DNA of 64,000 nucleotides, taken from the NCBI GenBank assembly GCA_963706025.1, contig CAVPLM010000003.1:256001-320000 (forward strand). The letters are read 5' to 3'. How positions within the stretch are numbered: the first letter of the stretch is position 1; the number at the start of each line of letters is the position of its first letter. The position numbers were made by a program, and so were the translations under genes. This document shows, piece after piece, positions 17,467 to 44,404 of this stretch. This DNA comes from an uncultured Actinomycetes bacterium. Lineage in GTDB: Bacteria; Actinomycetota; Thermoleophilia; RBG-16-64-13. The notes under the pieces were generated by a model. That model searched no databases. It was given only the letters and a program-made list of their open reading frames with translations, and had not been told where the DNA came from.

Positions 17467-17467
17467 G

Positions 17468-19131
17468 GTGGACGACGCGAGACTGAAGGCGCTGCGCGGA
17501 CTCCCGTCGGTGGAGGAACTGGTAAGCCACTCGGCTGCGGCAGCCCTCCTGGAACGCTACCCGCGGGTTCAGGTGGTCGAAGCGGCCCGGGTGGCGGTGG
17601 AGGCGGTGAGGCAGGCGATCGTGACCGATGGCCCGACGAGCGGCGGAGACACCCGGACCGTCGGCGCTGTGGCGGCTGCGCGAGCCGACGCTTCCTCGGA
17701 GACGCTTCTCGCCCAAATGGCCGTCATCTTGGAGTCGTGGGCGCGGCCGGGCCTGCGGCGGGTCTTCGACCTGAGCGGAGTAGTGGTCCACACGAACCTG
17801 GGTCGCGCTTGCCTGGCCGAAAGCGCGGTGGAGCGGGTGACGGAAATCGCTCGTTCTTACAGCAACCTGGAATACGATCTGGAAGCGGGAGTCCGCGGCC
17901 GGCGTGAGGTCCACGTTGAAGCCCTGCTCACTCGGCTGACCGGTGCAGAGGCCGCCTTCGTGGTCAACAACAACGCGGGCGCGATGCTGCTCCTCTTGAT
18001 GGGACTGGCCTCCGGGCGCGAGGTCCTGGTCTCGCGGGGACAATTGGTGGAGATCGGCGGTTCTTTCCGGCTGCCGGAGATCATGCGTGCAGGAGGCGTT
18101 CGGCTGGTGGAGGTGGGGACGACCAACCGGACCCGGATCTCGGACTACGAAGCTGCCATCACTGCCGAGACCGCGCTGTTGCTGCGGGTGCACACCTCCA
18201 ACTACCGGATCCTCGGCTTCGTCGAGGAAGCCGATTTGGCCGAGCTGGTCGATCTGGGCTGCCGGCGAGGTCTGCCGGTCGCCGACGACCTGGGTAGCGG
18301 CGCCCTGTACGAGCTCGACGCGTTCCTCGGGGAGCCGGCGGTGATGGCGTCGTTGCGGGCGGGCGTGGATGTGGTCTGCTTCAGCGGGGACAAGCTGCTG
18401 GGCGGTCCGCAGGCCGGGATCCTCCTCGGCCGGGCCGAGTTGATCGACAGACTCCGCGGGCACCCGGTAGCCCGTGCTCTACGCCTGGACAAGATGACGC
18501 TGGCCGCGCTGGAGGCGACCCTTCGTCTGTATCAGGACCCGGACCGGGCCCGTCGGGAGATCCCCACGTTGCGCTATCTCAGCCGCACTTCGGCGGAGAC
18601 GAGCGCGCTGGCCTCGGCTCTGCAGGCGGCCATCGAGCGGCGCTGCGGGGACGGTTTCATCCTGGAAGTGGAGGAGTCGAGCGCTCGGGCCGGCGGTGGC
18701 TCGATGCCGCTGGTGGAATTGCCGTCGCATGCCGTACGCATAAGGTTCCCGGAACAACCGGTACAGAGCGGAGCGCAGGGCGGGTCTGCCCGGCCCGCGG
18801 GAGCGGCCGGGGGTCCCGGAGGTTCGGCCGCCACGGACGCGGGGACCTTGCGGGCTTCCGGGCCCACGGTCTCGGCGCTGGAAGCGCAACTGCGCCGGGC
18901 GCCGATCCCCGTGGTGGCGCGGGTATCGCAGGACAGCCTCCACTTGGACGTGCTGGCTCTCGCTGAGAGCGAGGTGGAGGCCGCGGCCGAGAGCGTCGCC
19001 TGGGCGATCGAGCAGCTGGTGGGTCCGCCTACCGGGACGCCGACGGGGCCCTCGACCGGCCCTCCGGCCGGGGCGCCGGCTGCGGCCCCACCCGGGGCCT
19101 CGGCGGGTCTTCGACCGGGGCGGGGCCGTGA
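17468..19131 (+). CDS. selA: L-seryl-tRNA(Sec) selenium transferase; true 3' end probably the TGA of the GTGA overlap at 19128-19131 (as given, the ORF runs to 19399)
   Basis: HTNLGRA, VNNNAGA, SRGQLVEIGGSFR, VHTSNY and FSGDKLLGGPQAG motifs. Confidence 0.92.
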
Positions 19132-21197
19132 CCAAGGGGTCGACGCCCGCGGCGGGTGCGGGCTTGGAGGCGGCGCCCGGCCCCCGGGCGCCCGGGAACC
19201 GGGAGGCTGGGGGTCGGGGGTCCGGAGCAGCGCGTCCCCTGACCTTGGGGACCGCAGGTCACATCGACCACGGCAAGACCACCCTCATCAAGGCCCTTAC
19301 CGGTCGGGACACCGACCGGCTCAAAGAGGAGAAGGAGCGGGGCATCAGCATCGAGCTTGGCTTCGCCGAGCTGGTATTGCCCAGCGGCCGGCATCTTAGT
19401 GTGGTCGACGTTCCTGGGCACGAGCGTTTCGTCAAGACCATGGTGGCCGGGGCCACGGGGATCGACCTCTTCCTGTTGGTGGTGGCCGCCGACGACGGGG
19501 TCATGCCTCAGACCCGAGAGCACCTGCGCATCATCGAACTGCTCGACATCCCTACCGGCATGGTGGCCCTCACCAAGGTCGATGTCGTCGAGCGCGATCT
19601 GGCCGAGTTGGCGCGCGCCGACGCGGAGGAGTTCCTTGCCTCCACCCGTTACGCGGGGGCGCCGATCGTGGCGGTCAGCGGCGTGACGGGGGAGGGACTG
19701 CCCGAGCTGCTGGCCGCGCTCGACCGGTTGGGGGAACAGGTACCGCCGCGCCCCGCGTATCCCGCGACCCGCATGCCGGTCGACCGGGTCTTCTCCCTGA
19801 AGGGGATCGGGACCGTGATCACCGGCACCCTGTGGTCGGGGAACCTCAGCGCCGAAGACACGGTAGCTATTCTCCCGCCCCGGGCCGCTCGAAGCTCCGC
19901 CGGACTTCGCGACATACGGGTGCGGAGCGTGCAGGTGCACGACCAGGAAGTGGCTGTGGCCACCGGCGGCCAACGAGTAGCGCTGAACCTCACGGGCGTC
20001 GACCGAGATGAAGTCGACCGCGGGCAGTGGGTGGTGAAGGATCCCGCCATCAATCCCACCTTCCTGGCCGACGTGCACCTGATGTTGCTGGCCGACGCGC
20101 CCGGCGGGCTGTCCAGGGTGTCCCGGGCGCGGGTGGACCACGGGACCGCCGAGATACTGGCCAAGGTCGTGCTTGCCGACCGCGAATCCCTCGAGCCGGG
20201 AGAGTCCTGCTACGCCCAAGTACGTTTCGAAAGACGGGCCTTGGTGTATCCGGGCGACCAGTTCATCCTCCGCTCGGTCACGCCCGTTACCACTATCGGT
20301 GGGGGCCGGGTGATCGATCCCGCGCCGCATAAACACAGCACCGGGCCGCGGTGGCACGAGCGTCTCGCCTTGCTGGAGCAGGGACCGCCGGACGGGATCG
20401 CCGCCCTATTGCTCGAAGAATCGTTCCCGCGTTTCCTGGTCCGCGGGAGACTGGAAGCCAGTCCTTACCTCTGGCGTTTTGCCACCACTGATGTGGGCGC
20501 GGCCGTCGCCCGCCTGCTGGCGGACGGCCGCGCCCTACCGGTCCTCGGCGTCGGGACTACGGGCGCCGCGAGTGCCCGGCTTCTCCATGGGCCGCGGCTT
20601 CTGTCGCTGACCGAGACCACTCTGGGCACCCTGCGGGCCCAGGCCGAAGACGACGGATTGAACCCATATCTCACCCTCGGCGAGTTGCGGCGGCGCTTGG
20701 CAGGGGGCAAGGAGTGGCCGGCGCTCGACGCCGCGCTCGAGCGACTCCAGGCCGCCGACGAAGTCCTCCGTAGTGAGCATGGCTATCGCTGGGCGGGAGC
20801 TGTCGTCGCGCCGGATACCGCCGAGAGCCTGGTGATCGAGCGCCTGTTGGAGCAATTCACGGCGCCAGGCGCCGCCGAGACGCCGAGCGTGGTCGTGGCC
20901 GCGACGGCCGCCGGGCTCGTGCCTCGCGAGGCGCAGAAGATGGTTGACGCCTTGGTCCGTCAGGGCCGGTTGATCAAGGTAGGCGAAGACCTCTACTACC
21001 CGCAGGACCGGCTGCAGTCGCTCATGGATCGCCTGTCAGCCGCCATGGAGGCGGCCGGGCAACTGACCCTGGCGGAAGCCCGCGATCTGCTTGGCACGTC
21101 GCGGCGTTATGCCCAGGCCCTTCTCGAGCACATGGATTCTGAAGGCCTGACCCTCCGGGTGGGTGAGGCGCGGCGCCTGCGGCGCCGCCGCCGGTGA
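19128..21197 (+). CDS. selB: Selenocysteine-specific elongation factor
   Basis: [11 protein letters not shown] and [10 protein letters not shown]; C-terminal winged helix [20 protein letters not shown]. Confidence 0.95.
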
Positions 21198-21449
21198 CGA
21201 GGGACCCATCGCCAGCGTGGACGATGCTCGCCAGATAGCCCTGGGACGAGTCGAAGCTACGTGAGGCGATCGACCGCCGAAGCGCGCGCTTGGGGGGTGT
21301 CAACCTACTCACGGGACCTCCGCGATGGTAATGTAAGCGGACTGCCCCCAGGTATCGGCTGCTTGAGCCCAGGGGCCTGCGAGGGCCTGAGGGCGCCCGA
21401 CCCCACAGAGTAAGCACGGAATAGAGCCACGACGAGAAGGGGAAAGCAC

Positions 21450-22559
21450 GTGAAGATCAAAGCGGCTGTCCTACGGGAAGTCAAGAAAGGCTACAGTATC
21501 GAGGAACTTGAGCTCGAACCGCCACGTGCGGGTGAGGCCCTTATCAAGTATGCCTACACCGGCTACTGCCACAGCGATCTGAGCAACCTCATGGGCCGGA
21601 TCGAGATGGCCTTGCCGATGGTGGCCGGCCACGAATGCGCCGGCGTCGTCGAGGCCGTTGGCCCGGGCGTGACCCGCGTGAAGGTGGGCGATCACGTTGC
21701 CAGCGCGTGGATGGTCCCCTGCGGGGACTGCCCCGAGTGTCGCCGCGGGCTAGGCAATGTCTGCTCGGGCAACTTCCAGCACTTCGTCGGGGGCACCATG
21801 CTCGACGGTACCACCCGCATCAGGGACGCCAAGGGCAAGCCGGTTCTGCACGGCAACTTCGTATCCGGCTTCTCCGACTATACGGTGGCCCCCGAGGGCG
21901 CACTCGTGCCCATCCGCAAGGACATGCCTCTCGACTGGGCCTCCCTGATGAGTTGCTGCGTTCCCACAGGTTGGGGGACGGTAACCAAGCTGGCCAATGT
22001 CCAGCCTGGGGACAAGGTCGCCGTATGGGGCCTGGGAGGCGTGGGTCAGAACACGCTCCGCGCGGCCAAGATGCGGCAGGCCAACCCCCTCATCGCAGTG
22101 GATCTCGAGGAGTCCCGACGCGACCTCGCCCTCGAGTTGGGCGCCACGCACTTCATCTGCAATTCGCAGGAGGACCCTGTCCCGATCATCCAGGGGCTGA
22201 CAGGCGGGGGCGCGAACTTTATCTTCGAGTGCAGCGGAGACCCGGGCGCCCTGGTGCAGGCCTGGTGGGCACTGGGAGCGGCCGGTCGCCTTATGGTCAT
22301 CGGGATCATGGCCCAAGACCAGGTGGCGCCCATGCCCCTGACCTTCATGGCCCTGCAGCAGAAGGCGATGATCGGCGGGCTCTACGGTTCCATCTCGACA
22401 AAAGACGACATCCCGAAATTGGTCGATCTCGCGATGACCGGGGAGCTGAAACTGGACAAGATAGTAGAGGGCAAGTTCAAGCTCGAACAGATAAATGAGA
22501 TCGCCGAGAAGATGGAGAAGCGGCAGCTCGGCGGGCGCTGGGTCTGCGAATGGGACTGA
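21450..22559 (+). CDS. Zn-dependent alcohol dehydrogenase (MDR), mycofactocin-associated nicotinoprotein-like
   Basis: CHSD, GHE, CGDCPEC...C, CCVPTGWG and GLGGVG; lies directly upstream of mftA. Confidence 0.88.
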   Translation: MKIKAAVLREVKKGYSIEELELEPPRAGEALIKYAYTGYCHSDLSNLMGRIEMALPMVAGHECAGVVEAVGPGVTRVKVGDHVASAWMVPCGDCPECRRGLGNVCSGNFQHFVGGTMLDGTTRIRDAKGKPVLHGNFVSGFSDYTVAPEGALVPIRKDMPLDWASLMSCCVPTGWGTVTKLANVQPGDKVAVWGLGGVGQNTLRAAKMRQANPLIAVDLEESRRDLALELGATHFICNSQEDPVPIIQGLTGGGANFIFECSGDPGALVQAWWALGAAGRLMVIGIMAQDQVAPMPLTFMALQQKAMIGGLYGSISTKDDIPKLVDLAMTGELKLDKIVEGKFKLEQINEIAEKMEKRQLGGRWVCEWD

Positions 22560-22593
22560 GAGGCTGACGCGCTCTTCCTGACGGAGGGAATAC

Positions 22594-22719
22594 ATGGATA
22601 CGACGTTCGACGACGCCCTGGCCAATGTCCCCAGCCCCGCTTGTGCCGAGGAGCCGGCGATCCTCGAGGAAATCGAGGTCGAGGATCTGGCCGTAGACGG
22701 CATCTGCGGTGTCTACTGA
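22594..22719 (+). CDS. mftA: Mycofactocin precursor peptide, 41 aa (variant type)
   Basis: MDTTFDDALANVPSPACAEEPAILEEIEVEDLAVDGICGVY*; GGAGG RBS; C-terminus matches the IDGxCGVY signature. Not in the ORF track. Confidence 0.95.
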   Translation: MDTTFDDALANVPSPACAEEPAILEEIEVEDLAVDGICGVY

Positions 22720-22972
22720 GCGAACGAGCGAGTATCTCGTGCCGGACTGGGTCCGCGTGCGGCGCGAGAGCTTCGGGCTGCTCTTCTACGATACCCGTTC
22801 CACTAGGCTGACGTTCGTGCGCTCCGGTGACAGCCTGGCGCCTCCGCCCTTCACCGGCCCCCTTCGCGCCCTCCGCGTGAACCCGGTCGACGAGGGGCGG
22901 CGTCCGGCGGTGTCGCGACTCCTGCAGAGCCTTGTAGCCAAAGGCCTCATCGTTGCCGCCGAGCCTCAGTAG
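22709..22972 (+). CDS. mftB: Mycofactocin RRE chaperone
   Basis: VRVRRESFGLLFYDTRSTRLTFV...LQSLVAKGLI; sits between mftA and mftC. Confidence 0.88.
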   Translation: MSTERTSEYLVPDWVRVRRESFGLLFYDTRSTRLTFVRSGDSLAPPPFTGPLRALRVNPVDEGRRPAVSRLLQSLVAKGLIVAAEPQ

Positions 22973-24018
22973 CACCCGGCTCCGCGCGCCGGTCAACGTC
23001 ACCTGGGAGATCACCGAGGCGTGTAACCTCCGCTGCACCCATTGCTTGTCCGCCGATCTGTGGGCGGGGGGGCGGGGCGAGCTCGACCTGGGCCAGTGCC
23101 GGGCTCTCATCGACGAACTGGCGCGCATGGAGGTCTTCCAGGTGAACTTCGGAGGCGGAGAGCCCTTCCTACGGGACGATTTCCTCGACATCCTCCGCTA
23201 CGCGCATTCCCGGGGCATTACCAACTGCGTCAGCACCAACGGGACGTTGCTCGAACGACGCTCTTGTCGATGAGCTACTGCGAGTGGCGCCCGTCTACCT
23301 ACAGGTGAGCCTTGACGGCGCGTGCGCCGATACCAACGACGCCATCCGAGGCCGGGGGACCTTCGCCCGCATCCTCGCGGGTATCGAGCTTCTCTCCGAG
23401 CGCGGCTATCCCGACTTCAGCCTCAACCTGGTGGTCACCCGCCTGAACGTGGCCGAGATCGCGGACTTCGACCGGCTCGCCCGGCGCTACGGCGCCAAGA
23501 CCCGTCTCTCCCGTTTCCGCCCCTCTGGAGCGGGGTGCAGCATCTGGGAGGACTACCGGCTGACCCGGGACCAGCTCCTGGCGCTCTCGGCCTTTCTGGG
23601 GGACCACTCGGAGATCCTGACCGGCGATTCGTTCTTCGCCCTTACCCCGGAGAGTCGCCGGGCCCTGGGGCTGAACATGTGCGGCGCGGCGAAGATGACC
23701 TGCGCCGTGGCGCCCGACGGCAGCGTCTATCCCTGCGCTTTCCTCTGTCACCCCGACTTTCTCGCCGGCAACGTCACCGCCGAGCCGTTCGCGGCCATCT
23801 TCCGCTCCTCGCCGGTGCTCGAACGGTTCCGGGAGCTCGAGGTAGATACGTGCCGCACCTGCGACCGCTTCTCCGTCTGCCACGGTGGCTGTCCGGCGGT
23901 GGCGTGTTTCCTCACTGAGTCGCTGGACCATCCCGACCCGGAGTGCCTGCGTGCTGTGTTGCCCGTCACGGAAGCGGTGCCCGTCAGGGAGGCGATACCC
24001 GCCAAGGAGGTGGCCTAG
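22953..24018 (+). CDS. mftC: Mycofactocin radical SAM/SPASM maturase; frameshift near 23255
   Basis: APVNVTWEITEACNLRCTHCLS, VFQVNFGGGEP and LGLNMCGAAKMTC; SPASM CRTC..CHGGC..PDPEC. Confidence 0.92.
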
Positions 24019-24021
24019 GCC

Positions 24022-25972
24022 ATGCAGTTCCCCAACCTCTTCAGCCCTTTGCGGATCGGTCGGGTGACCGTGCCCAACCGCATCTCCTTCTCCGCCCATC
24101 TGACGAACCTCGCGGATGACGCACTGCCCACCGACCGGCTCACACACTACCTGGCGGCCCGCGCCCGGGGCGGGACCGGCCTGATCATTACCGAAGAGCA
24201 GTCCGTCCACCCCACCGACCGGGCCTACGAGCGACTTATCGAGGCCTTCCGTCCGGAGGTCATCCCCGGCTACAGGCGGCTCACTCAGGCGGTCCACGCC
24301 TACGACACCCGCATCTTCGCCCAGCTCAACCACAACGGGCAGCAGTGCAGCGGCAGCCTTTCCCGGCTTCCCGTGTGGGCGCCCTCCCCCGTTCCGGACG
24401 TGCTCTACCGGGAGACGCCCAAGGCCATGGAGATCGAGGACATCCAGGAAATGATCGATCACTTCGCGCTTTCCGCGGTCCATGTCCGCGAAGGCGGGTT
24501 CGACGGGGTGGAGCTGCAGTTCGGTCACAGCTCGCTGGTGCGCCAGTTCATGTCGCCGCTCACGAACTATCCGGGGCGACGAGTACGGCGGCGACTTCGA
24601 GAACCGGATCCGGTTCGCCCTGCAGGTGATCGCCGCGGTCCGTGAGGCGGTGGGCGCCGACTTCACCCTGGGCGTACGCCTCTGCGCCGACGAGCTGATC
24701 CCCGGGGGACTCACCCTCGACGACGCCAAGCAGATCGCGCAGCGGCTCGAAGCGACCGGCCACCTGGACTACTTCAACCTCACTCTGGCCACCTTCTACA
24801 ACCTCTATCTGGTCGGGGGCCCCATGCATCTGCCTCTGGGCTACGCGGTCCCCTTGGCGGCCGGTATCAAGGAGGTGGCGACGCTCCCGGTGTTCGCCAC
24901 CGGGCGCATCAACGACCCGGCGATGGCCGAGCGGGTGCTGGCCGAAGGACAGGCCGACATGATCGGGGTGGTGCGGGGCCAGATCGCCGACCCCGACTTC
25001 GCCCGCAAGGCCCGCGAGGGCCGGACCGAGGAGATACGCTACTGCATAGCCTGCAACCAGAATTGCTACGGACGGGTGGGGCTCAACAAGACGATCGGGT
25101 GCGTCCAGAACCCCTTCGTAGGTCACGAAGACACCGAGGGAGAGTCGCATCTCCGGCCTGCGCTACGCAAGAAGCGGGTAATGGTCGTGGGCGGGGGCCC
25201 AGCGGGCATGTGGGCGGCCAAGATCGCCACCCTGCGGGGACACCAGGTGACCCTGTACGAGAAGGCCGAGGAGCTCGGCGGCCAGGTGCTCCTGGCCGCG
25301 AAGGGAGCAGGCAGGGACGAGTTCGGGGTGATCGTGCGTAACGAGCGCAACCAGTTGGCCCATCTGGGGGTGCCCGTGGAGCTTGGCGTGGAGGTCACGC
25401 CGGAGCTCGTTCTCGAACAGCAGCCGGACGCGGTGATCGTGGCCACCGGGTCGCGTCCCAAGGCCAGCCCGGTCGCCGGCGCCGACGGCCCCCATATCTT
25501 CAACGTGTGGCAGGTCCTGAGCGGGGAGGCAGAGCTGGGCGAGAAGGTGCTCTTGATCGACTACGACGGCCACCACCAGGCGACGGCCACGGCGGAGTTC
25601 CTCGCCGAGCTCGGCAAGACCGTGCACGTGGTGACCTCGAGCCTCTTCGTGGGAGCTGAGCTGGGTCCGTCGCAGGATCTCTATCTCACCCGGCAGCGAC
25701 TGCTCCAGAAAGGGGTCACCTTCACCCCCGACTTCGCGGTCATGGAGATCAAGGGCACGGAGGTCCACGGTTTCAACGTCTACTCCAATGTCTGGGACGT
25801 GTTCTCGGGTCACGACAGCATCGTCACCGCCATGGGCAACGACGCCTACGACGGTCTCTACTTCGCCCTCAAGGGGAAGGTACCCGAGCTCTACCGTATC
25901 GGCGACTGCGTGGCGCCGCGGAAGGTGGACATGGCCATCCACGAAGGCTACATGGCCGGCAAGCGCGTGTGA
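24022..25972 (+). CDS. FadH/old-yellow-enzyme family oxidoreductase (mycofactocin-system type); frameshift near 24571
   Basis: NRISFSAHLTN, GFDGVELQFGHSSLVRQF, CIACNQNC, GGGPAG and IGDCVAPR motifs. Confidence 0.88.
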
Positions 25973-27060
25973 GTACCAGTGGCGACAACGCGACGCCCGC
26001 GGTGGCTGCCGGCCCTAGCAGCGGCGGCGCGCGCGCCCTCCTCGTGGTCGTCGAGCCGCCGAGCGGAGGGAGCGAAGCGGTCGGAATGGTCGGCGCGGCG
26101 GGGGCCGTTCTCCTCACCGAAGGCGCCCGGCTCGCTCGCGATCTGGGGGTAGACCCGCACTTTGTCACCTGGCCGGCCGGGGCGGAAGTCGACCCCGAGC
26201 TGCTGGCCGCGGCGCTGGCCGATCTCGTCGAGCACACGCGGGCGAGGGCCGTCGTACTGGCCGACACCGATGTCGGCCGCCAGCTCGCGCCCATGGTGGC
26301 CCACCGACTGGGCTCCGGGGCCGTAGTAGGCTGCAGCGACGTGCTGCTGCGCGAGGAAGCCGAGGGGGGCGGCCGGGCGGGCCGGCGGGCGGACGGTGGA
26401 CCGGGCTCCTGCGCGGAAGGTGGACGGGGACCGCGGACCCTTGCGTTCGTGAAGCCGGTCTACGGGGGCTGGTTGGAACGGGAGATCGAACCCGGGGCCG
26501 GCGTCGTACCGGTCGCGACCCTGGACCTCACCGGGATGGAGGCGCCGGACTCTCCTTCGGACGGGTTGCCGACCCCAGAGGTCCTGCAGATCGAGGTCGG
26601 CGCGCCCGGCGCGCAACCGCACGTCCAGCACCTCGAGACCATCCCCCCGGACCCTCGGTCCGTGGACCTGGTCCATGCCAGACGCATCGTGGCCGCTGGG
26701 GCGGGAAGTGCGAGCGAAGATCTCCTGGCCGCGGTGCGGGAGCTGGCCGAGCTTCTCGAGGGTTCGGTGGGAGCTACTAGGCCGGTGGTCGACGACGGGC
26801 GCCTCCCCAAGGAGCGGCTTATCGGTCAGACGGGTAGGACGGTGACCCCTGAGTTGTACCTCGCGCTTGGGATCTCGGGTTCCCCTCACCACGTGGCGGG
26901 GGTGCGGAAGGCCGATCGGATCCTCTCTATCAACCGGGATGTACGTGCCCCCATCTTCCAGTTCTCCGACGTCGGCTATGTCGCAGACCTGGAGGTGGTG
27001 CTGCCCGGCCTCGTGCAGAGGATCAAGGAGTGGCGGGATGCCCCCGGCAGTCCCGACTAG
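25969..27060 (+). CDS. fixB: Electron transfer flavoprotein alpha subunit
   Basis: VGATRPVVD, IGQTGRTVTPELYLALGISGSPHH and INRDVRAPIF motifs. Confidence 0.88.
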   Translation: MSTSGDNATPAVAAGPSSGGARALLVVVEPPSGGSEAVGMVGAAGAVLLTEGARLARDLGVDPHFVTWPAGAEVDPELLAAALADLVEHTRARAVVLADTDVGRQLAPMVAHRLGSGAVVGCSDVLLREEAEGGGRAGRRADGGPGSCAEGGRGPRTLAFVKPVYGGWLEREIEPGAGVVPVATLDLTGMEAPDSPSDGLPTPEVLQIEVGAPGAQPHVQHLETIPPDPRSVDLVHARRIVAAGAGSASEDLLAAVRELAELLEGSVGATRPVVDDGRLPKERLIGQTGRTVTPELYLALGISGSPHHVAGVRKADRILSINRDVRAPIFQFSDVGYVADLEVVLPGLVQRIKEWRDAPGSPD

Positions 27061-28483
27061 CCCCGTTGGCGCATCCACCGGTAGCGGCGCAGGCGTTCGC
27101 GGAGGCTCCGCCCCGGGTGCGCCCACTCCCGGCGCCTCCGTCCGCGGCTCCTCCGGAGGGTTCGATGCCATAGTCGTCGGCGCGGGCCCGGCCGGCACGA
27201 GCGCGGCGCTCGGCCTAGCACAGAAAGGGGCCAAGGTCCTCCTCCTGGAGCGAGGCGAGTACCCCGGGGCCAAGAACATGTTCGGCGGGATGACGGCCTA
27301 CTGCCCGGCTCCAGAGCAGCTGGTACCCGACTTCTGGGAGCGTGCTCCTTGGGAGCGAGCGGTGACCAAGCGGGTGCTCTCCGTGGTGGGCGAGGCTTCC
27401 TCCACCTCGCTGGTCTTCCATGCCAACTCCGACTCCGATCGACCCTCGGCGGGCGCCGGCTCGACCTCCGACCGGACCCTGACCGGGTTCACCCTCTTCC
27501 GCCCTCTCTTCGACCGCTGGTACGCGGAGCAGGCGGTCGCCCAGGGAGTGACCCTGCTCACCGGCTGCCGCGCGGAGGGTCTGCTGATGCGCGATGGAGC
27601 CGTCCGGGGAGTGCGTGTGACTGGGGTCGACGACATCGTGGAGGCTCCTCTGGTCATCGCCTGCGACGGGACCCTGTCCTTCCTGGCCCAAGAAGCCGGG
27701 CTGCATGGAGGCTTCAAGCCGGAACAGGTGGCGCTCGGAGTCCGAGCTCTTTACCGGCTGACCGAGGAGGAGATCAACGACCGCTTCGGCCTCACCGGCC
27801 GCGAGGGCGCTACCCACGAGTTCCTGGGCTGCACAGAAGGGATCCGTGGAGGCGGCTTCATCTACACCCAGACCGAGACCCTCTCGGTGGGCCTGGTGAT
27901 GCACCTCGACTCGCTGAAATCACGGGGGATACCGCCCTACGAGATGATGGAGCGTTTCATCGTCTCCAGCCCGGTGGCTTCGATGCTTCGGGGGGCCCGG
28001 CTGGTTGAGTACTCGGCCCACCTGCTGCCGGAGGCCGGCATGCGCATGGTACCTCGCTTGTCCACCGAGGGATTGCTGGTCGCCGGGGACGCCGCCGGGT
28101 TCTGCTACACGAACGGACTCACCCAGGAAGGGATGAACCTGGCCATGACCTCGGGCCTCGTGGCAGGCCGGGTGGCCGCGGAAGCCCTGGCCGAGGGCGA
28201 CTTCTCCGCGGCCCGTCTCGCGCGCTACGCGGAAGAACTCAAGCAGAGCTTCGTCCTGCGCGACCTGACCACGTTCGGTCGGGCCATCGATTTCCTGCAC
28301 CATGACCGGCTGTTCACGGTCTACCCGCGGGTGGTGAGCGCGCTCATGGAGGACGTCTACCGCTCCGACGGCAGCCCCAAGGAGAAGATCGGCCGCCTGG
28401 GCCGCAGGGCGGTGAAGGACGAGGTACCGTTACGTCAGCTGATCGCGGACCTGTTCGGAGGAGGGAGGGCGTTCCTGTGGTAG
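27038..28483 (+). CDS. fixC: FixC-like FAD oxidoreductase (ETF:quinone oxidoreductase)
   Basis: VGAGPAG, LERGEYPGAKNMFGG, GGGFIYT, EYSAHLLPE and GDAAG motifs. Confidence 0.9.
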   Translation: MPPAVPTSPVGASTGSGAGVRGGSAPGAPTPGASVRGSSGGFDAIVVGAGPAGTSAALGLAQKGAKVLLLERGEYPGAKNMFGGMTAYCPAPEQLVPDFWERAPWERAVTKRVLSVVGEASSTSLVFHANSDSDRPSAGAGSTSDRTLTGFTLFRPLFDRWYAEQAVAQGVTLLTGCRAEGLLMRDGAVRGVRVTGVDDIVEAPLVIACDGTLSFLAQEAGLHGGFKPEQVALGVRALYRLTEEEINDRFGLTGREGATHEFLGCTEGIRGGGFIYTQTETLSVGLVMHLDSLKSRGIPPYEMMERFIVSSPVASMLRGARLVEYSAHLLPEAGMRMVPRLSTEGLLVAGDAAGFCYTNGLTQEGMNLAMTSGLVAGRVAAEALAEGDFSAARLARYAEELKQSFVLRDLTTFGRAIDFLHHDRLFTVYPRVVSALMEDVYRSDGSPKEKIGRLGRRAVKDEVPLRQLIADLFGGGRAFLW

Positions 28484-28752
28484 TCGATGAACTGTTCGAC
28501 CTGGTGAGCTACCGGATCCACCCCGAGGCACACATCCTCCTAAACCAGGACGTCTGCCAGGACTGCACCCATCGCGCGTGCACCTTTGCCTGCCCCGCGC
28601 GCTGCTACACCTGGAGCGAGGAGCGAGCCCGGGTGGAGTTCGCCTACGAGGCATGTCTGGAATGCGGCACCTGCCTGCTCCTTTGCGACCGCGAAGCTCT
28701 TGACTGGCATTACCCCCATGGAGGGTATGGTGTGCGCTTCCGACTCACATAG
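28477..28752 (+). CDS. fixX: FixX ferredoxin-like protein
   Basis: CQDC...CTFACPARCY, CLECGTC and YPHGGYGV motifs. Confidence 0.9.
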   Translation: MVVDELFDLVSYRIHPEAHILLNQDVCQDCTHRACTFACPARCYTWSEERARVEFAYEACLECGTCLLLCDREALDWHYPHGGYGVRFRLT

Positions 28753-28888
28753 TTTCCAAGCGGCCACTCCGATTGCCGGTGGGATTCCGCCGTGGCGTCC
28801 GCGCCGTCGGCGACCGCGCGCGGCGGCGAGGCCCGCTCTCGCCGCGCGGACTCGCCGGCATGTGGGCGCCCCCATGGGGAGTCTACCG

Positions 28889-29863
28889 ATGAAGCTGCTC
28901 GTCTTCCTGGAGCTGGGCGCCGACGTGCGCATCCCGCCGGAGCGCGATTCGCGCAGCGGACGTGTCCGCGAGGATTGGCTCGTGCGGGAGATCGATCCGG
29001 CCGGCGCTCGTGCCCTCGACCTTGCGTTGGGCGTGAAGGCGGCCCGACCGGGTACCGAAGTGACCCTTTTCCACCTCGGGCCGCCGAACAACGAACCCTG
29101 GCTCCGTCAAGCCCTGGCCCGGGGCTGCGACCGGGCGGTGCGCGTCTGGGATGACGAGGTCGCCGAGGTCCGAGCCGCGGGCAAGGCGGTCGTCCTGGCC
29201 GCCGCCGCGGAGGCAGCCGGCTTCGACCTTGCTCTTGCTGGAGCCGCAGGCGTCATCAACAACAGCGGTCAGTTCGGTGTGCTTCTCGCCGCTCATCTGG
29301 GCTTGCCCTGCGTGACCCAGGTGATCGACATCGTGCTCTCGGACGGCACAGGTAGCGTGGAGATGAGCCGCGGTCTGGACAAGGGCTTTCGCGAGCGGGT
29401 GGAGGTGCCCCTGCCCGCCGTGGTGACCGTAGCGGCCGGCGGGCCCACTTCAGATGGCGCGCCGCCGCCCGATGTCTCTGCCGCCGCCTTCCTGGCTGCC
29501 CATGACTACGAGATCACGGTGTGGGACCTGGCCGACCTGGGAGTGCCCCGCGAGAGGGTCCGGCGCGCCGACCAGCCCCTCAGATACGGCCGTCCCCGTC
29601 CTCGTCAGCCCCGGCTTCATAATCTCGCGGCGCCCGACCCAGCTCTGCCGGCTTTCGACCGTATCCTGGAGCTTGTCCGAGGATCGGTGCAGACGCGTCA
29701 GGGCCGCGTCGTTCAGCAGCCCGCGGAAGCGATCGTAGAGGAGATCTTCAAGACTCTGAGGGATGAGGGCTGGCTCGATCACCTCCGTGCCGGCGAGGGC
29801 CGCGGTGCCGATGGCTCGATCCCCGCCGCCGGCCCGACCCCGGAGGCCGGTGAGCCTCTTTGA
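28889..29863 (+). CDS. fixA: Electron transfer flavoprotein beta subunit (divergent)
   Basis: LRQALARGCDRAVRV, GVLLAAHLGLPCVTQV and EVPLPAVVTV motifs. Confidence 0.8.
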   Translation: MKLLVFLELGADVRIPPERDSRSGRVREDWLVREIDPAGARALDLALGVKAARPGTEVTLFHLGPPNNEPWLRQALARGCDRAVRVWDDEVAEVRAAGKAVVLAAAAEAAGFDLALAGAAGVINNSGQFGVLLAAHLGLPCVTQVIDIVLSDGTGSVEMSRGLDKGFRERVEVPLPAVVTVAAGGPTSDGAPPPDVSAAAFLAAHDYEITVWDLADLGVPRERVRRADQPLRYGRPRPRQPRLHNLAAPDPALPAFDRILELVRGSVQTRQGRVVQQPAEAIVEEIFKTLRDEGWLDHLRAGEGRGADGSIPAAGPTPEAGEPL

Positions 29864-31404
29864 TACCCTTGGAGTACCGGCTTCGTGAGTCGGTGCGGTT
29901 CGAACAGAATACCGACGGTACCTGGTGCGTAGTATCCGAGCTGCCTCTCAGCGTGGTGACGGTCAACGCGTCCGCCGTCCGGCTCTTGGAACGTACCCGT
30001 GACGGCGCCTCGATCACCGATATCGCTGCCGAGCTCCGCATTCCTGAAGAACGGATCTTCACCCTATGCGAGTACTTTCGCGGCCGGGGGATCCTCGAAG
30101 TCGGCCGGTCGAGTCCCGATCCCGACTTCGCGCCGTCGGCAACGGTGATCGTCCCCACCCGCGACCGCGCGAACGATCTGGACGACTGTCTGGGCGCTCT
30201 TGCTCACCTGGACTACCCGCGCGACCGGCTCGAAGTGATCGTCGTCGACGATGGCTCCGCCGACCCGGACGCGGTCGCGGAAGTCGTCGCTCGCCACGGT
30301 TGCCGCCTGCTGGTCAACGAGCGCAACCGAGGCCCCTCCTACTCGCGCAACCGAGCCGCCCGCGAAGCGGCGGGCGAGATACTCGCGCTGGTCGACAGCG
30401 ACTGCGTGACCGGCCCGGGCTGGCTCCGGGAACTCACGCCCTACTTCTCCTGGGAACGCGTGGGAGCGGTAGGAGGCCGTACGCTCGGCTACTACACCGA
30501 GTCGCGGCTCGACCGATACGAGGAGGTCGCTTCTCCTCTCGACATGGGCAGGCATCTGGTCCTGAAGACGCGAGGAAGCGACACGTTCTACGTTCCCACG
30601 TGCAATCTCCTGGTGCGCCGGTCCGTGTACCTCGATCTGGGGGGCTTACGCGAAGACCTGCTTGTGGGTGAGGACGTGGACTTCTGCTGGCGTCTCCGGG
30701 CATCCGGGGCCTATCTCGTATACGCCCCCGAAGGGACGGTGCGCCATAAGCACCGCAACCACCTGGGTTCGATGCTCCAGCGGCGGGCGGACTACGGGAC
30801 CTCCGAAGCCACGCTCCACGCGCTCCATCGCGACAAGCGCAAGCGCTTCCCGCTGGCCCCGGCTCCCTTGGCGACCGTAACCATGTTCTCAGCGGCTCTG
30901 GTCGGGATGCAGCCAGGGTTGCTGCCTATCTGCTTGGCGCCGCCGCTGTGGGACGGGGCGCGTCGTTCACTTCATCTGCGGCGCAGCGGGATCGATCTGC
31001 CCGCCGGGCGCGTGTGGTCTTCCGTGTTCCGTGGACACCTCTCCATGCTCTACTTCGTCTACTTCCATCTTGTGCGGTACTACCTGGTGCCTTTGGCCAC
31101 GGCGGGTCTCTTTGCCCCGGGTGTTCGGCTGCTCACTGCCTTCGCCGTCCTGTACTCCTCGGCCGTCGACTACTCCACCAAAGGGCCTCGGATCGGTTAC
31201 CCCACGTACCTCGGCTACTACCTGGCGGAGCACACGGCATATCAGATGGGTGTCATCGCGGGCTGCGTCCGCGCGCGGACCTTCCGGTCGTATCTACCGG
31301 CGGTCCAGCGGGACCGGTCGTCCGGAGACTGGCAGGCCGCGCGGGAAGAGCCCCAGGGCCACGCTGCCAGGATGCGCGGTGCCAGAACCCGTGTTTCTGG
31401 GTAA
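29860..31404 (+). CDS. mftF: Mycofactocin glycosyltransferase
   Basis: GT2 motifs (VVDDGS, GPSYSRN, DSDC) plus RYEEVASPLDMG, YVPTCNLLVRR, GEDVDFCWRL and YGTSEATL. Confidence 0.9.
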   Translation: MIPLEYRLRESVRFEQNTDGTWCVVSELPLSVVTVNASAVRLLERTRDGASITDIAAELRIPEERIFTLCEYFRGRGILEVGRSSPDPDFAPSATVIVPTRDRANDLDDCLGALAHLDYPRDRLEVIVVDDGSADPDAVAEVVARHGCRLLVNERNRGPSYSRNRAAREAAGEILALVDSDCVTGPGWLRELTPYFSWERVGAVGGRTLGYYTESRLDRYEEVASPLDMGRHLVLKTRGSDTFYVPTCNLLVRRSVYLDLGGLREDLLVGEDVDFCWRLRASGAYLVYAPEGTVRHKHRNHLGSMLQRRADYGTSEATLHALHRDKRKRFPLAPAPLATVTMFSAALVGMQPGLLPICLAPPLWDGARRSLHLRRSGIDLPAGRVWSSVFRGHLSMLYFVYFHLVRYYLVPLATAGLFAPGVRLLTAFAVLYSSAVDYSTKGPRIGYPTYLGYYLAEHTAYQMGVIAGCVRARTFRSYLPAVQRDRSSGDWQAAREEPQGHAARMRGARTRVSG

Positions 31405-31480
31405 GAGATGACCATAGGGCCGAAATGGGCTTGATGTCGGAGGACCTGGAGAAACGGTTGACCTGGCTGGGAGGAAGAAG

Positions 31481-31834
31481 ATGGGTCGCTTGGTGGATGT
31501 CGGAGCAGCGGGGGACTTCGCAGACGGGACGATGCGGGCGGTGACCGTCGAGGGGCGCGAGCTGCTGGTCGCCCGGGTGGGCGACGCGTACTACGCAGCC
31601 GACGAACGGTGCCCTCACATGGGGGGAAGGCTGTCCCAGGGCAAGTTGGAGGGCACGATCGTCACCTGTCCTCGGCACGGATCTCGCTTCGACCTGGCCG
31701 ACGGGCGCATGGTCCGGTGGACCGACTGGTCGGGTCTCACCCTCACTCTGGCGAAGACATTCAAGTCGCCGCGGCCCATCAGAACCTATGCCACACAGGT
31801 ACAGGCTGACCGTTTGACGGTGGAGCTCGAGTAA
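31481..31834 (+). CDS. Rieske [2Fe-2S] ferredoxin
   Basis: CPHMGG...CPRHGSRFDL motifs. Confidence 0.9.
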   Translation: MGRLVDVGAAGDFADGTMRAVTVEGRELLVARVGDAYYAADERCPHMGGRLSQGKLEGTIVTCPRHGSRFDLADGRMVRWTDWSGLTLTLAKTFKSPRPIRTYATQVQADRLTVELE

Positions 31835-31979
31835 GGGGCGGGAACCGGTTGCGACCCGGGCGGCGGTCGTCGACCCGGGCGTCGGTGGCCGCGTTCGCGG
31901 CCTGGCCCGGGTGCTGGCGACGGCCGGGTATCAGCGGGGGCGTTCTTGGTCTGACCCGGGGTATCATTGACCAAGCTGC

Positions 31980-32076
31980 GGAGCGGCGCTCGGTCTGGTG
32001 GCCGGCCCGGTCTTCAAAACCGGTGTTGGGCGGTAGTCCCGTCCAGGGTGGGTTCGATTCCCATGCCGCTCCGCCA
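31980..32076 (+). tRNA. selC: tRNA-Sec (UCA)
   Basis: 8-bp acceptor stem GGAGCGGC/GCCGCTCC, 6-bp D stem, anticodon loop CTTCAAA, long variable arm, GCCA end. Confidence 0.95.
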
Positions 32077-32160
32077 ACTCCCTGGTCATCGGCGTACCAG
32101 CTTGATAATGTCGCTCACACGACCATTTCTCTTACCCGATAGCCAATAAAGGAGGACGGT

Positions 32161-32391
32161 ATGCAGCTGACATTGGGCGACGACGAGGCCCAAGTACTTG
32201 CAGAGACGGTCAAGGGTCGCATAAACGCGCTGCTCATGAGCATAGCCAGGGCGGATTCACGTTCCTACAAGGACCAGCTCATCGCGGAAGGCAGTCTTCT
32301 CGAAGGCATCTACGAGAAGCTCGGATGCGCGCACGACGAGTGGAGCGAAGCCAAGAGCTGCGGCTTCGAGGCGGCGAAAAAAGCGGAATAG
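32161..32391 (+). CDS. Small hypothetical protein (76 aa)
   Basis: Strong AAAGGAGG RBS before the ATG; helical-looking sequence. Confidence 0.65.
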   Translation: MQLTLGDDEAQVLAETVKGRINALLMSIARADSRSYKDQLIAEGSLLEGIYEKLGCAHDEWSEAKSCGFEAAKKAE

Positions 32392-32460
32392 GCTTCGCTG
32401 GCTCAGTTGTCGAGCCCGCCTCCAGTGGGAGGGCGGCGTTACTCTACGAGGACGGAACGA

Positions 32461-32910
32461 GTGCGGGCCATCACGTTTCACTACAGTATGCCGCGGTGCG
32501 CATGCGCCCGGCTGGCGGGACTTGTGACGCCGCGTGCTTATGTGGGCCGCTTGGCCCCCACGCAGCTGGAGGACATCCCTCAGACCTCTCTGCCCGCCGA
32601 GGACTGGGTGCTTCTGCGCGTTATCAGGTGCGGCATCTGCGGCAGCGACGTCAAGCAGGTGTTCATGGAGGCCCACTTCGACAACCCCCTCACCTCCCTC
32701 ATCAGTTTCCCTCAGGTGTTGGGGCACGAGGCCGTGGGGGTGATCGAGCAAGTAGGTCCAGGCGTGAGGCGGCGGCAGGTGGCTGAGCGGGTCGTCCTCA
32801 ACCCATGGCTGGCCTGCACAGCGGACGGGGTGGTCGGGCGGGAATCCTCGCTCTCAGACCTCTTAGGACGGGCCGCCAGGGCTGGGTTGGCGGCCTCGCC
32901 TTCTGGGTAA
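32461..32910 (+). pseudogene. Truncated Zn-dependent dehydrogenase (N-terminal GroES domain only)
   Basis: CGICGSD, LGHE and VVLNPWLAC present; homology stops near 32820 with no Rossmann domain in the remaining space. Confidence 0.75.
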
Positions 32911-32951
32911 CTTTGGCTTGATTCAGTAGCGAATCCAGCAAGGAGCGGCCC

Positions 32952-35117
32952 GTGGCCGGACTTGCCCGGTGGTGCTACCGGCACCGCGTCATCGTCGTTG
33001 TCGCCTGGCTGGTAGTTCTCGTGTCCGTCATCGGCATCGCACGAGCGGTCGGCAGTGCCTACACCGACTCCTTCAGCTTGCCCGGAACCGAGTCCTCGCG
33101 TGGCCTTCAGCTCCTCCGTTCCGAACTTCCCCAGCAATCGAGCGACTCCGGCACGATCGTCTGGCACACCCCGGATGCCTCCGTGAACGACCCGGCGGTC
33201 AAGGCGAGCATCCAATCTCTGCTCGAGCAAGTCGCGGCAGCGTCGTCGGTCGCCTCAGTGAATGGCCCCTACGATCCGGCGGGGGCAGGACAGATCAGCA
33301 AGGACGCCAAGACCGCCTACGCGACCGTGACGTTTGTCGGACGGGGTTCGTCGCTGCCCAAGCAGGACGTTCTTCACGTTGTAGACCTCGTTCGCGCTGC
33401 CCGTGCCCCAGGCCTGCAGGTCGAGGCGGGTGGCCACGCCATCGAGCACGCCACCGAGGGCTCTCTGTCGAGCAGCATGGCCGTCGGGCTGATCGCGGCC
33501 GCCGTGATCATTCTGGTCGCTTTCGGCTCGTTCTTCGGCATGCTGCTGCCGCTCATCACGGCCGGGGTAGCGCTCGGCATGACGATATTCGGCATCGAAC
33601 TGGTCTCCCATGCGGTCGGGATCAACTCCGTCGCTCCAACCATGGCCATCGTCATCGGGCTGGGTGTGGGCATCGACTACGCGCTCTTCATAGTCACCAG
33701 GTACCGTCACGGTCTCAAGATCGGGATGCCGCCAGAAGGGGCGGCCATGGAAGCGCTGAATACGGCCGGCCGCGCAGTGCTTGTCGCCGGCGGAACGGTC
33801 TGCATCGCACTACTAGGCCTGCTGGTGCTCCGCATGAGCTTGCTCGACGGCCTGGCCTACTCATCGGTCTTTGCTGTGGCGCTCACCATGGCTACCGCCA
33901 TCACGCTCTTGCCTGCGCTCCTGGGCTTCATGGGCCCGCGGGTGCTCAGTCGTCGCGAGCGAGCACGACTGGCCAAGACGGGACCGCAGGAAGGCCACGG
34001 GGGCGGCTTCTGGCCACGCCTGGGAGGCTTTGTCTCCCGCCGCCCCGTGATCCTCGCGGTGAGCGCATCGATCCTGATGCTCGTTCTCGCCAGCCCCTTC
34101 CTTTCGCTGCGGCTGGGCCTGTCCGACGCCGGGAACGACCCTGCCTCCTCGACCACGCGCAAGGCTTACGACCTGCTGACCCAGGGCTTCGGCCCGGGCT
34201 TCAACGGTCCGCTGCTCCTGGTGGCGCAGTTGGGTTCGTCGGCCGACGCGGCCGCGCTTGAACGATTGACCCAGGCCCTCGAGGGCGAGGACGGCGTGGC
34301 TGCCGTCGTCCCCTTTCCCACCCAGCCGGGGGCGAAGGTGGCTATCGTCCAGCTCATCCCCACGACTTCATCTCAGGACGCGCGCACCGGTGACCTGATA
34401 ACCCGTCTACGGAGCGACGTGATCCCGGCAGCCGAAAAGGGGAGCGATCTCCAGGTGCTCGTCAGTGGAGGCCCAGCGATCGCTCACGACTTCGCCGCCG
34501 CCGTCACCTCCAAACTGCCGCTCTTCGTCGGCGTCATCGTCGCGCTCGGTTTCCTTCTCCTGTTCGTCGCCTTCCGTAGCTTCGTGGTCCCCGCTACCGC
34601 CGCTCTTATGAATCTCCTCGCGGCCGCGGCCGCGTTCGGCGTCGTCATCGCCTTCTTTCAGTTCGGCTGGGGATCGGACCGACTGGGGCTGGGGCGGGCC
34701 GGGCCGCTGGAGGCGTTTCTGCCGGTGATCATGTTGGCCGTGCTTTTCGGCCTCTCCATGGACTATCAGGTGTTCCTCGTGAGCCGCATACACGAAGAGT
34801 GGGTCCATACGCACGACAACCGCCGTTCGGTCATCGCAGGGCAGGCCGCCACAGGACGCGTGATAACCGCGGCGGCCGCCATCATGATCTGTGTCTTTGT
34901 GGCTTTTGTCCTGGGCGGCCAGCGGGTCATCGCCGAGTTTGGCGTCGGACTCGCCGCCGCCGTTCTTCTCGACGCCTTCGTATTGCGGACCTTTCTCGTG
35001 CCGTCCCTGATGCATCTTTTCGGCAAAGCGAACTGGTGGCTTCCCCGCTCGGTCGATCGTCGCCTGCCCCATCTAGCAGTGGAGCCGGCCGAGGACACGA
35101 GGAAACACGAGAGATGA
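32952..35117 (+). CDS. MMPL (RND superfamily) transporter
   Basis: GLGVGIDYALFIVTRYR, GFGPGFNGPL and LFGLSMDYQVFLVSRIHEE motifs. Confidence 0.93.
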   Translation: MAGLARWCYRHRVIVVVAWLVVLVSVIGIARAVGSAYTDSFSLPGTESSRGLQLLRSELPQQSSDSGTIVWHTPDASVNDPAVKASIQSLLEQVAAASSVASVNGPYDPAGAGQISKDAKTAYATVTFVGRGSSLPKQDVLHVVDLVRAARAPGLQVEAGGHAIEHATEGSLSSSMAVGLIAAAVIILVAFGSFFGMLLPLITAGVALGMTIFGIELVSHAVGINSVAPTMAIVIGLGVGIDYALFIVTRYRHGLKIGMPPEGAAMEALNTAGRAVLVAGGTVCIALLGLLVLRMSLLDGLAYSSVFAVALTMATAITLLPALLGFMGPRVLSRRERARLAKTGPQEGHGGGFWPRLGGFVSRRPVILAVSASILMLVLASPFLSLRLGLSDAGNDPASSTTRKAYDLLTQGFGPGFNGPLLLVAQLGSSADAAALERLTQALEGEDGVAAVVPFPTQPGAKVAIVQLIPTTSSQDARTGDLITRLRSDVIPAAEKGSDLQVLVSGGPAIAHDFAAAVTSKLPLFVGVIVALGFLLLFVAFRSFVVPATAALMNLLAAAAAFGVVIAFFQFGWGSDRLGLGRAGPLEAFLPVIMLAVLFGLSMDYQVFLVSRIHEEWVHTHDNRRSVIAGQAATGRVITAAAAIMICVFVAFVLGGQRVIAEFGVGLAAAVLLDAFVLRTFLVPSLMHLFGKANWWLPRSVDRRLPHLAVEPAEDTRKHER

Positions 35118-43239: not shown

Positions 43240-44404
43240 CTAGGCGACCGGTTCGGTCTGGGTGTCGCCCGGCATACCCTCGGTCGCTGGCAGCGGCGCG
43301 ATCTGCTCACGCAGCACCGAGAAATACATGGCCAACGGGCGATAGGCCATGTGCGACCACTTGCTGAACGGGCACTTCCAGCCCAAGCATTGGGACCACC
43401 GCCATGAGATGCACGACATACGAGACGTTTGCGGCCACGTCGGCGCCCCACGGTGCAGCACGTGCTGTAGGATGCCCGTCGCCGCCACGATGATCAGGAG
43501 AACGAGGAACATCCAGTCGCTCTCGTGCGAGTGCCTGTAGTGCTCCTCCACCTTCTTGATCCGGCCGCGCAGCGCATAGATGGTCGCGCCCAGCAGCCCG
43601 ACGCTCGCCAGATAGCCAAACGCGTGCACACGCCAGTCGATCTCGGGACCGGACCACATGCGATCGAGGAAGAACATGATGAGCATGAGCATGGTCACGT
43701 AGCTGAGCATAAGCATCAGGTGCAGGATCCACGGCCGTTTCTGTTGCACTGCGCGTAGCGCTTCTGAGTCATGAAGTGGAGCGGGAAGAGATAGAGAGCC
43801 CTTGACGTACGCCAAGGGCGGTAGCCGCCCCGTGCGGGACCCGCCCACCGTGTCGCGCCCCAGCGTGAACCACCACATGCGGGCGCAGTTGGGAAGCAGA
43901 AAGGCAAGGAGAAAAGCCGCCAGGAGCCAGTCGAAGATGTGGATGGTGCTCGCCGGCAGGAAAGCGTCGGGCCCGTGTACTGGTGGATGTCGCCCTGGAG
44001 GAGGCCGAAAAGGTGAAACCAAGGCCGGTGAGGAGCGCCACCACCACCACGGCGATGATCTCGGTCTACGGGCGCCGGTAGAACATCCGGCCGATGCCGG
44101 TGAAGTCGTAGCGCGAGGTCAACCAGCGGCGCAGGCTCATCATGGTCTCGCCCGGTTGGGCCTCCCGCGGGCACTCCGTCGAGCACTCGCCGCAGTAGTA
44201 GCAGAGCCAGGGCTCGAGGCTGCTCTCGAGCTTCTTCTCCATGCCCATCTGGAGGGCGTGCATGCACTTGCGCGGGAAGTTGTACGACTGGTCGATGAGC
44301 GAGCAGGTCGCCGTGCAGTTACCGCAGTTGTAGCACTTCTGCACATCCTCGGCTCCGTAGAGAGCCAAGTCGTCGATGAAGCCGGGATTCACCCTGGTGG
44401 TCAT
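43240..44404 (-). CDS. QmoC-like protein (HdrC-type 2x4Fe-4S plus membrane cytochrome b-like domain); several frameshifts
   Basis: CYNCGNCTATC and WLCYYCGECSTECP; TM parts with WILHLMLM, DWMFL and PFSKWSHMAYRPLA. Confidence 0.75.

Follow-up and report, generated by a model that had tools for sequence, protein, structure and literature searches.

A variant-type mycofactocin system, of a widespread kind already named in NCBIfam, is recognizable by its protein families in a stretch of 64,000 nucleotides (the window) from the draft genome of an uncultured Thermoleophilia bacterium (GCA_963706025.1, contig CAVPLM010000003.1, positions 256,001 to 320,000). The gene run comprises eleven genes at 21450-31834 of the window, all on the + strand, with ends that overlap or nearly abut. 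Between mftC and mftF lie genes for a flavoenzyme of the FadH/old yellow enzyme (OYE) family, for both subunits of an electron transfer flavoprotein (ETF), and for FixC- and FixX-type proteins. We propose, with a probability of about 0.6, that this OYE-EtfAB-FixCX chain is the electron outlet provided by MftG in mycobacteria. More broadly, we infer that the flavoenzyme and its electron-transfer chain stand in for three or four standard genes in this variant.

The mycofactocin core comprises MftA, MftB, MftC, and MftF, which always occur together (Haft 2011), and three of these four proteins exceed the cut-offs of their family models directly. MftA (22594-22719, 41 amino acids), with the C terminus VDGICGVY, matches the "variant-type mycofactocin precursor" model NF040489 at 40.9 bits (cut-off 30) and TIGR03969 at 27 bits (cut-off 25). 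The gene for the precursor-binding chaperone MftB (22709-22972; TIGR03967, 46.7 bits, cut-off 33) overlaps both neighbours, mftA at its 3' end and mftC at its 5' end, and mftF (29860-31404) encodes a mycofactocin glycosyltransferase of family GT2 (TIGR03965, 355.8 bits, cut-off 280; Pfam Glycos_transf_2). The genes for the radical SAM/SPASM maturase MftC (22953-24018) and for the OYE protein (24022-25972), a flavoenzyme with FMN, [4Fe-4S], and FAD-domain parts, are each split by a single extra base. The two mftC pieces (22953-23273 and 23284-24018) score 103.4 bits (model positions 7-100) and 231.7 bits (112-334) against TIGR03962, each below the cut-off of 265, and the two OYE pieces (24022-24645 and 24482-25972) score 308.7 bits (1-179) and 636.3 bits (179-644) against TIGR03997, "mycofactocin system FadH/OYE family oxidoreductase 2" (OYE_2; cut-off 793.15). 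Both proteins pass when the scores of their pieces are summed, and their intact orthologues in a genome of the same genus (G003) pass whole at 326.9 and 952.7 bits, respectively. As shown by homology, MftB and MftC would act on, and cross-link, the C-terminal Val-Tyr of MftA, and MftF would glycosylate the product.

The first-pass annotation had described the stretch as a variant mycofactocin cluster without MftD, MftE, and MftR. This description is upheld together with its gene order and coordinates, and no MftD, MftE, or TetR-type gene lies within 21450-31834. The one-base splits of mftC and the OYE gene had been overlooked, and the novelty of the cluster had been overrated: variant MftA and its OYE already have NCBIfam models (NF040489 and TIGR03997), and the cluster is a routine example of that variant.

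The conservation of the cassette was examined in two sets of loci. The family set contains 13 same-family relatives with MftC at or near the cut-off. For the wider set, species-representative genomes were searched with an alignment of nine OYE proteins, and the best 80 of 477 stretches were kept; OYE was the sole query. The wider loci are labeled Gaiellales/Thermoleophilia, other Actinomycetota, Syntrophorhabdales, other "delta" groups, Geobacteraceae, Dehalococcoidia, Acidobacteriota, and Goldiibacteriota, and they could be assessed for gene content where at least 6.5 kb downstream (n = 55) or at least 1.7 kb upstream (n = 70) was available. The order mftB-mftC-OYE-etfA-fixC-fixX-etfB-mftF is identical in 12 of the 13 family loci. 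In the wider set, etfA, fixC, fixX, etfB, and mftF are present in 54 of 55 loci, and mftB and mftC in 66 of 70. This arrangement, found in all but one of the 13 relatives and again across several phyla, is far beyond chance. Nor do relatives lack OYE and fix genes beside their mft genes, which would have refuted the reading of the first-pass annotation. Within the cassette, conservation is highest for the OYE: in four loci of other groups, its identity to the window protein is ~64-77%, compared to 45-59% for FixC, 44-72% for MftC, 39-47% for MftF, 34-41% for EtfA, and 27-39% for EtfB. Across the 12 family loci with the module, FixX identity ranges over 49-94%. In the family member G021, OYE-etfA-fixC-fixX-etfB stand together on one contig (C1; L152 8107-13642) and ADH-mftABCF (ADH, alcohol dehydrogenase) on another (C3; L028), and the OYE is divergent (59-61% identical); the OYE/ETF/FixCX module is a unit able to act in trans.

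The genes at the two ends of the run are less constant. The Zn-dependent ADH (21450-22559; Pfam ADH_N and ADH_zinc_N) has a homologue directly upstream of mftA in 8 of the 13 family loci and adjoins the cassette in 36 of the 80 wider loci. Among NCBIfam models it matches TIGR03989 (NDMA-dependent ADH) best, but the score of 317.9 bits does not reach the cut-off of 440, and its earlier designation as a nicotinoprotein went too far. An Fe-ADH precedes the cassette in 14 of the 80 wider loci, mostly in Dehalococcoidia, and an aldehyde:ferredoxin-oxidoreductase-like gene stands 3' of mftF in 17, with 12 of the 17 in a Geobacter-type group (loci L108-L148); both names come from sequence reading. 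The last gene of the run encodes a small Rieske [2Fe-2S] protein (31481-31834, 117 amino acids; Pfam PF00355, 62.3 bits), which had been counted as part of the system. It follows mftF only in three genomes of the same genus (3 of 13 family loci) and in 2 of the 80 wider loci; it is a genus-level neighbour, and its membership in the system is doubtful.

The standard genes missing from the cluster are not found elsewhere in the genome either. Six-frame searches of the whole source genome with hidden Markov models yielded best scores of 31.1 bits for MftD (TIGR03966, cut-off 470.85), 65.6 bits for MftE (TIGR03964, cut-off 172), 20.3 bits for MftG (TIGR03970, cut-off 387.45), and 257.9 bits for OYE_1, the other OYE of mycofactocin systems (cut-off 627.9). 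Among this genome and 40 relatives, only G038, a relative with a canonical mycofactocin cluster that served as a positive control, passes the MftD and MftE cut-offs (671 and 290.8 bits). In all 25 same-family genomes (14 with the cluster and 11 without), MftD and MftE stay under the cut-off, and for MftD there is no match at an E value of ≤1e-10 in any of them. The same holds beyond the family: no tblastn match to MftD or MftE of G038 was obtained in the 80 wider loci, and neither protein is over the cut-off in five cassette-bearing whole genomes of other groups (two Geobacteraceae, one Dehalococcoidaceae, one Syntrophorhabdales, and one Acidobacteriota).

The best MftE match in the source genome is a creatininase-family gene on another contig (C17:45982-46791; L001 1462-2322) with a product of 286 amino acids. 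As a protein, it scores 167.9 bits against Pfam Creatininase, and its best NCBIfam match is MftE at 88.6 bits (cut-off 172). Similar genes occur in 10 of the 14 family genomes with the cluster and also in 5 of the 11 without it, so the gene is not tied to the system, and its candidacy as a hidden MftE is unsupported. Clustering of the flanking open reading frames (ORFs) of the 80 loci yielded ADHs, the aldehyde-oxidoreductase-like gene, and regulators, with several top clusters being antisense artefacts, and no peptidase family near the cassette as a substitute for MftE.

Comparison with the known layouts places the cluster among mycofactocin systems. The canonical Mycobacterium system (mftR and mftA-G) has in common with the window an MftA ending in GVY, MftB, a radical SAM/SPASM MftC, MftF, and an adjacent ADH. 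The window differs in lacking MftD, MftE, MftG, and a nearby TetR regulator and in having the OYE/ETF/FixCX module inserted. The canonical MftA tail is DGMCGVY, as in the canonical locus of G038, whereas the window type has DG[IV]CGVY (69 of the 80 wider loci), and MftC of the window type scores ~325 bits against the family model, compared to 600-650 for canonical MftC. M18 is among the carriers named in an earlier publication (PMC3023750), and a 2025 study of MftG gives mftG in 234 of 311 genomes with mftC (PMC11778925).

A second layout, the two-OYE clusters of other Actinomycetota (TIGR03996, TIGR03997, NF038209, and TIGR04503), resembles the window in having OYE_2 and in missing MftD and MftG. 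OYE_2 was found at an E value of ≤1e-200 in 7 of 301 sampled genomes, and five of these 7, all actinobacterial and with OYE_2 above its cut-off, were compared. MftD and MftG are over the cut-off in none of the five, and all five have a canonical-scoring MftC, OYE_1, and MftE. In both layouts, where OYE_2 is found, MftD and MftG have been lost. The other two, OYE_1 and MftE, are both present in the two-OYE type and both absent in the source genome, which hints, from two lineages only, that OYE_1 acts after MftE, in an MftD-like step, and OYE_2 with the ETF. The ETF subunits of the window are also below the cut-offs of mft_etfA and mft_etfB, unlike the ETF for which these NCBIfam mycofactocin models stand.

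What would the OYE of the window do? Its nearest solved structures are 2-naphthoyl-CoA reductase (NCR; 6qkg, 318 bits) and the 2,4-dienoyl-CoA reductase FadH (1ps9, 287 bits), followed by histamine and trimethylamine dehydrogenases at 207 and 199 bits. Two features of NCR and FadH are kept in the OYE, the cluster motif C-x2-C-x3-C...C and, in the second domain, a GxGxxG of the FAD type. They differ from it in context, since the OYE stands in the operon of a RiPP cofactor (a peptide made by the ribosome and modified after translation) and not in acyl-CoA metabolism. The OYE also lacks the NADPH loop (GxGxxG) of FadH. At this position it reads "llidydghhqata", which resembles trimethylamine and histamine dehydrogenases and NCR. 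Because the NADPH glycine loop is replaced, the sequence suggests that the OYE has a protein, and not NAD(P)H, for its partner.

The amine dehydrogenases offer a model for such a partner. Trimethylamine dehydrogenase uses an ETF as its physiological electron acceptor, and the complex of the two has been solved (PDB 1o94). Like the OYE, trimethylamine dehydrogenase (Methylophilus methylotrophus) and histamine dehydrogenase are three-domain FMN/[4Fe-4S]/ADP-type proteins without GxGxxG in the third domain. Like the window, the trimethylamine dehydrogenase of 1o94 has a dedicated ETF encoded alongside, whose beta subunit (1o94_C) is the second-best solved match of EtfB. By analogy with this pair, the ETF encoded next to the OYE would be its obvious candidate partner. 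The likeness has limits, since these dehydrogenases match the OYE at just 199-207 bits and their flavin-linking Cys is Leu in the OYE.

The remaining components of the chain are recognized by homology, at scores below the family cut-offs. The large ETF subunit gene etfA (fixB; 25969-27060) scores 140.2 bits against NF038209 mft_etfA (cut-off 240), and the best solved relative of its product is the alpha subunit of Thermotoga maritima EtfABCX (7koe_B, 118.8 bits). The flavoprotein of the ETF:quinone oxidoreductase type, FixC (27038-28483), scores 316.3 bits against NF007542 (cut-off 610) and is closest to FixC of the same complex (7koe_C, 219.3 bits); its start is uncertain, either the ATG at 27038 or a later one, and conserved residues begin at 27158. 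The ferredoxin-like 4Fe-4S protein FixX (28477-28752) scores 48.4 bits against NF011993 (cut-off 166). The small ETF subunit gene etfB (fixA; 28889-29863), with a start set at MKLL by comparison with the G003 orthologue, scores 74.3 bits against TIGR04503 mft_etfB (cut-off 200), and its product is closest to CarD (6fah_B, 76.6 bits) and M. methylotrophus ETF beta (1o94_C, 60.2 bits). The start codon of etfA overlaps the stop codon of the OYE gene, and that of mftF overlaps the stop codon of etfB. The ETF subunits are probably named only generically by automatic annotation. Opposite etfA, the - strand holds an open frame of 449 codons (25948-27297) with high third-position GC content (GC3), and the + strand frame of etfA falls under the GC3 filter; the + strand gene is nevertheless backed by homology. 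In one Geobacteraceae locus (L142, 14631-15560), etfB has an in-frame stop.

EtfABCX of T. maritima (7koe) and FixABCX resemble the window in that they provide the best solved matches of FixC and EtfA, in the presence of FixX, and in the likely acceptor, menaquinone. They differ in gene order, which here is etfA-fixC-fixX-etfB, and in the EtfB stretch that aligns to CarD, which is not conserved. The CarD residues GRQAIDGDTAQVG correspond to GAAGVINNSGQFG in the window protein, and the stretch varies among 66 related loci. A judgement on electron bifurcation (a second FAD site and NADH use in EtfB) from this one EtfB motif was dropped, as the stretch is too variable. An NADH-using bifurcating mode of the ETF is not supported by the sequence.

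The chemistry of MftC, MftE, MftD, and MftF has been described for the mycobacterial system, and mycofactocin biology is known almost only from aerobic mycobacteria, in which MftD depends on an oxidant and respiration receives electrons from MftG. In the pathway that we favor for the window, the OYE would draw electrons from the reduced cofactor and deliver them to its dedicated EtfAB, from where they would run through FixC and FixX to menaquinone. The chain would stand in for MftG by re-oxidizing the reduced cofactor without O2, and it may also replace MftD, which forms the keto redox centre, likewise without O2. The adjacent Zn-ADH would be a client dehydrogenase, and alcohol oxidation would thereby be wired to the quinone pool. 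Transfer from the cofactor to the quinone would be downhill, because the redox potential (E0') is -255 mV for premycofactocin (quoted in PMC11778925) and -74 mV for menaquinone (PMC10734219).

Several observations weigh against this proposal. The C=C and aryl reductases NCR and FadH are closer to the OYE than the amine dehydrogenases are, and the OYE has Leu where trimethylamine dehydrogenase has its flavin-linking Cys (H-L, versus H-C in histamine dehydrogenase), a residue that we take to form 6-S-cysteinyl FMN in the amine dehydrogenases. Neither cofactor oxidation nor deamination follows from the homology of the OYE. Without MftE, we know of no way to free the amine required by MftD-type chemistry. 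The absences themselves are not proven, as the draft is 92.29% complete with 7.31% contamination. The deficit of the ETF subunits against their mycofactocin models recurs in the three other lineages tested: EtfA scores 140-157 bits against the cut-off of 240 here, in G003, and in one Geobacteraceae and one Dehalococcoidaceae locus, and EtfB scores 74-81 bits against the cut-off of 200 here, in G003, and in a Dehalococcoidaceae locus; FixC, FixX, and the ADH are also below family cut-offs. Finally, no paper joining mycofactocin with electron transfer flavoprotein or Etf was found in the literature searched, and the only match that joins it with old yellow enzyme is, judging by its title, on an unrelated topic.

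Two alternatives concern the chemistry. The single-OYE type is without MftE, MftD, and OYE_1, and no means by which it could release or deaminate the core is known; because of this it may make a chemically different cofactor, perhaps peptide-bound or never deaminated, that OYE_2-EtfAB-FixCX would couple to the quinone pool; we hold this idea only tentatively, at odds of about one in four. Slightly less probable still is the reading that the first-pass annotation preferred, namely that the OYE is chiefly biosynthetic and takes the place of MftD in making the keto redox centre without O2, with ETF and FixCX only disposing of the electrons and the working cofactor being re-oxidized elsewhere. MftD is indeed missing in all cassette-bearing genomes searched (0 of 25 family genomes, 0 of 5 from other phyla, and 0 of 5 with the two-OYE layout), the OYE gene directly follows mftC, and the superfamily includes the C-N-oxidizing trimethylamine and histamine dehydrogenases. 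However, a chain of five proteins leading to the quinone pool is a large outlay for a reaction needed once per cofactor molecule, and MftG is missing too, so that recycling of the cofactor needs something. The amine-dehydrogenase Cys is absent as well, with C=C reductases being the nearer relatives. Moreover, OYE_1 and MftE occur together in the two-OYE type (5 of 5 each) and are both absent here, a pattern that fits OYE_1, and not OYE_2, as the partner of the MftE step, although it comes from two lineages only. We favor a role of the OYE-EtfAB-FixCX chain in re-oxidizing the cofactor.

This proposal presupposes an intact cluster, and the breaks in mftC and the OYE gene require an explanation. 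DNA alignment with four relatives places one extra base near 23252-23256 in mftC and one near 24569-24571 in the OYE gene. To set these breaks against the genome as a whole, long high-GC3 ORFs from 340 kb of G003 were aligned to the source genome, and orthologues of at least 70% identity were retained. Under strict rules, 25 of the 146 G003 ORFs with an orthologue show a clean frame switch in the source genome (40 of 165 under looser rules). These amount to 27 events over 166 kb (0.16 per kb), 7 of which fall in the window, and the 2 events in the 10.4 kb of the cluster equal this background rate. Within the window, the frame-switch sites relative to G003 are at 83, 23215-23252, 24572-24576, ~43974-44009, ~46811-46830, 54318-54320, and 58620-58621.

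Contigs of four public runs from four studies, 90-99% alike, were also aligned to 22900-25900. At the mftC site, every covering contig of the four runs is without one base, including one of 134 bases that otherwise differs at only one position. At the OYE site, the contigs of three runs are without one base, and the fourth run (X7) has no cover there. A point on the other side is that these contigs represent relatives or strains and not reads of the assembly's own sample. Outside the breaks, the MftC and OYE proteins are 82-93% identical to the products of the intact G003 genes and show no further damage. Because both frameshifts look like assembly errors, the cluster is probably intact and functional. 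That it is decaying, with mftC and the OYE gene as true pseudogenes, is very improbable: a one-base insertion does break the frame in each gene, but frame switches are equally frequent genome-wide, the protein identity to G003 is high with no other damage, and the extra base is missing from the covering contigs at both sites. The two broken genes should not be taken as biology, and any "split" or "truncated" gene in this genome needs a frame-error caveat.

Least probable of all, at a few percent at most, is that OYE/ETF/FixCX is an unrelated operon, serving for instance enoyl- or aryl-CoA metabolism, and sits within the mft cluster without belonging to it. In favor of this, the best-matching solved structures are acyl-CoA-type reductases, the module is apart from the mft genes in G021, and the ETF subunits are under the mycofactocin-specific cut-offs. 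Against it, the module stands between mftC and mftF in unchanged order in at least five labeled phylum-level groups (54 of the 55 loci and 66 of the 70 that could be assessed), with overlapping start and stop codons at two of its junctions.

The flanks of the gene run are unrelated to it. Upstream lie genes for a polyprenyl diphosphate synthase, selA, and selB. Only residues 42-463 of the 676-codon selA frame (17369-19399) match TIGR00474 (527.4 bits), and this frame continues into the selB frame (18744-21197; TIGR00475, 323.8 bits), which may reflect a lost stop or another frame error. On the downstream side, an ORF at 32407-32910 that matches only the first ~130 positions (the N-terminal domain) of Zn-ADH models stops 42 bases before an MMPL transporter gene (32952-35117); this ADH fragment is either what is left of a gene or the product of an assembly break. 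A scan of 20900-33000 for promoter and terminator consensus sequences gave 1 + 1 sites, not above shuffles, and in two RNA runs (X19 and X20), just 0.05-0.06 of the sampled words were present.

The cassette shows how anaerobic and sediment lineages, including Gaiellales, Geobacteraceae, Syntrophorhabdales, and Dehalococcoidia, may dispense with MftD, MftE, and MftG, and it singles out one highly conserved flavoenzyme and its ETF as the proteins of interest. If the single-OYE type does make a different cofactor that is coupled to the quinone pool, anaerobes in several phyla would gain an O2-independent route from alcohols to respiration.

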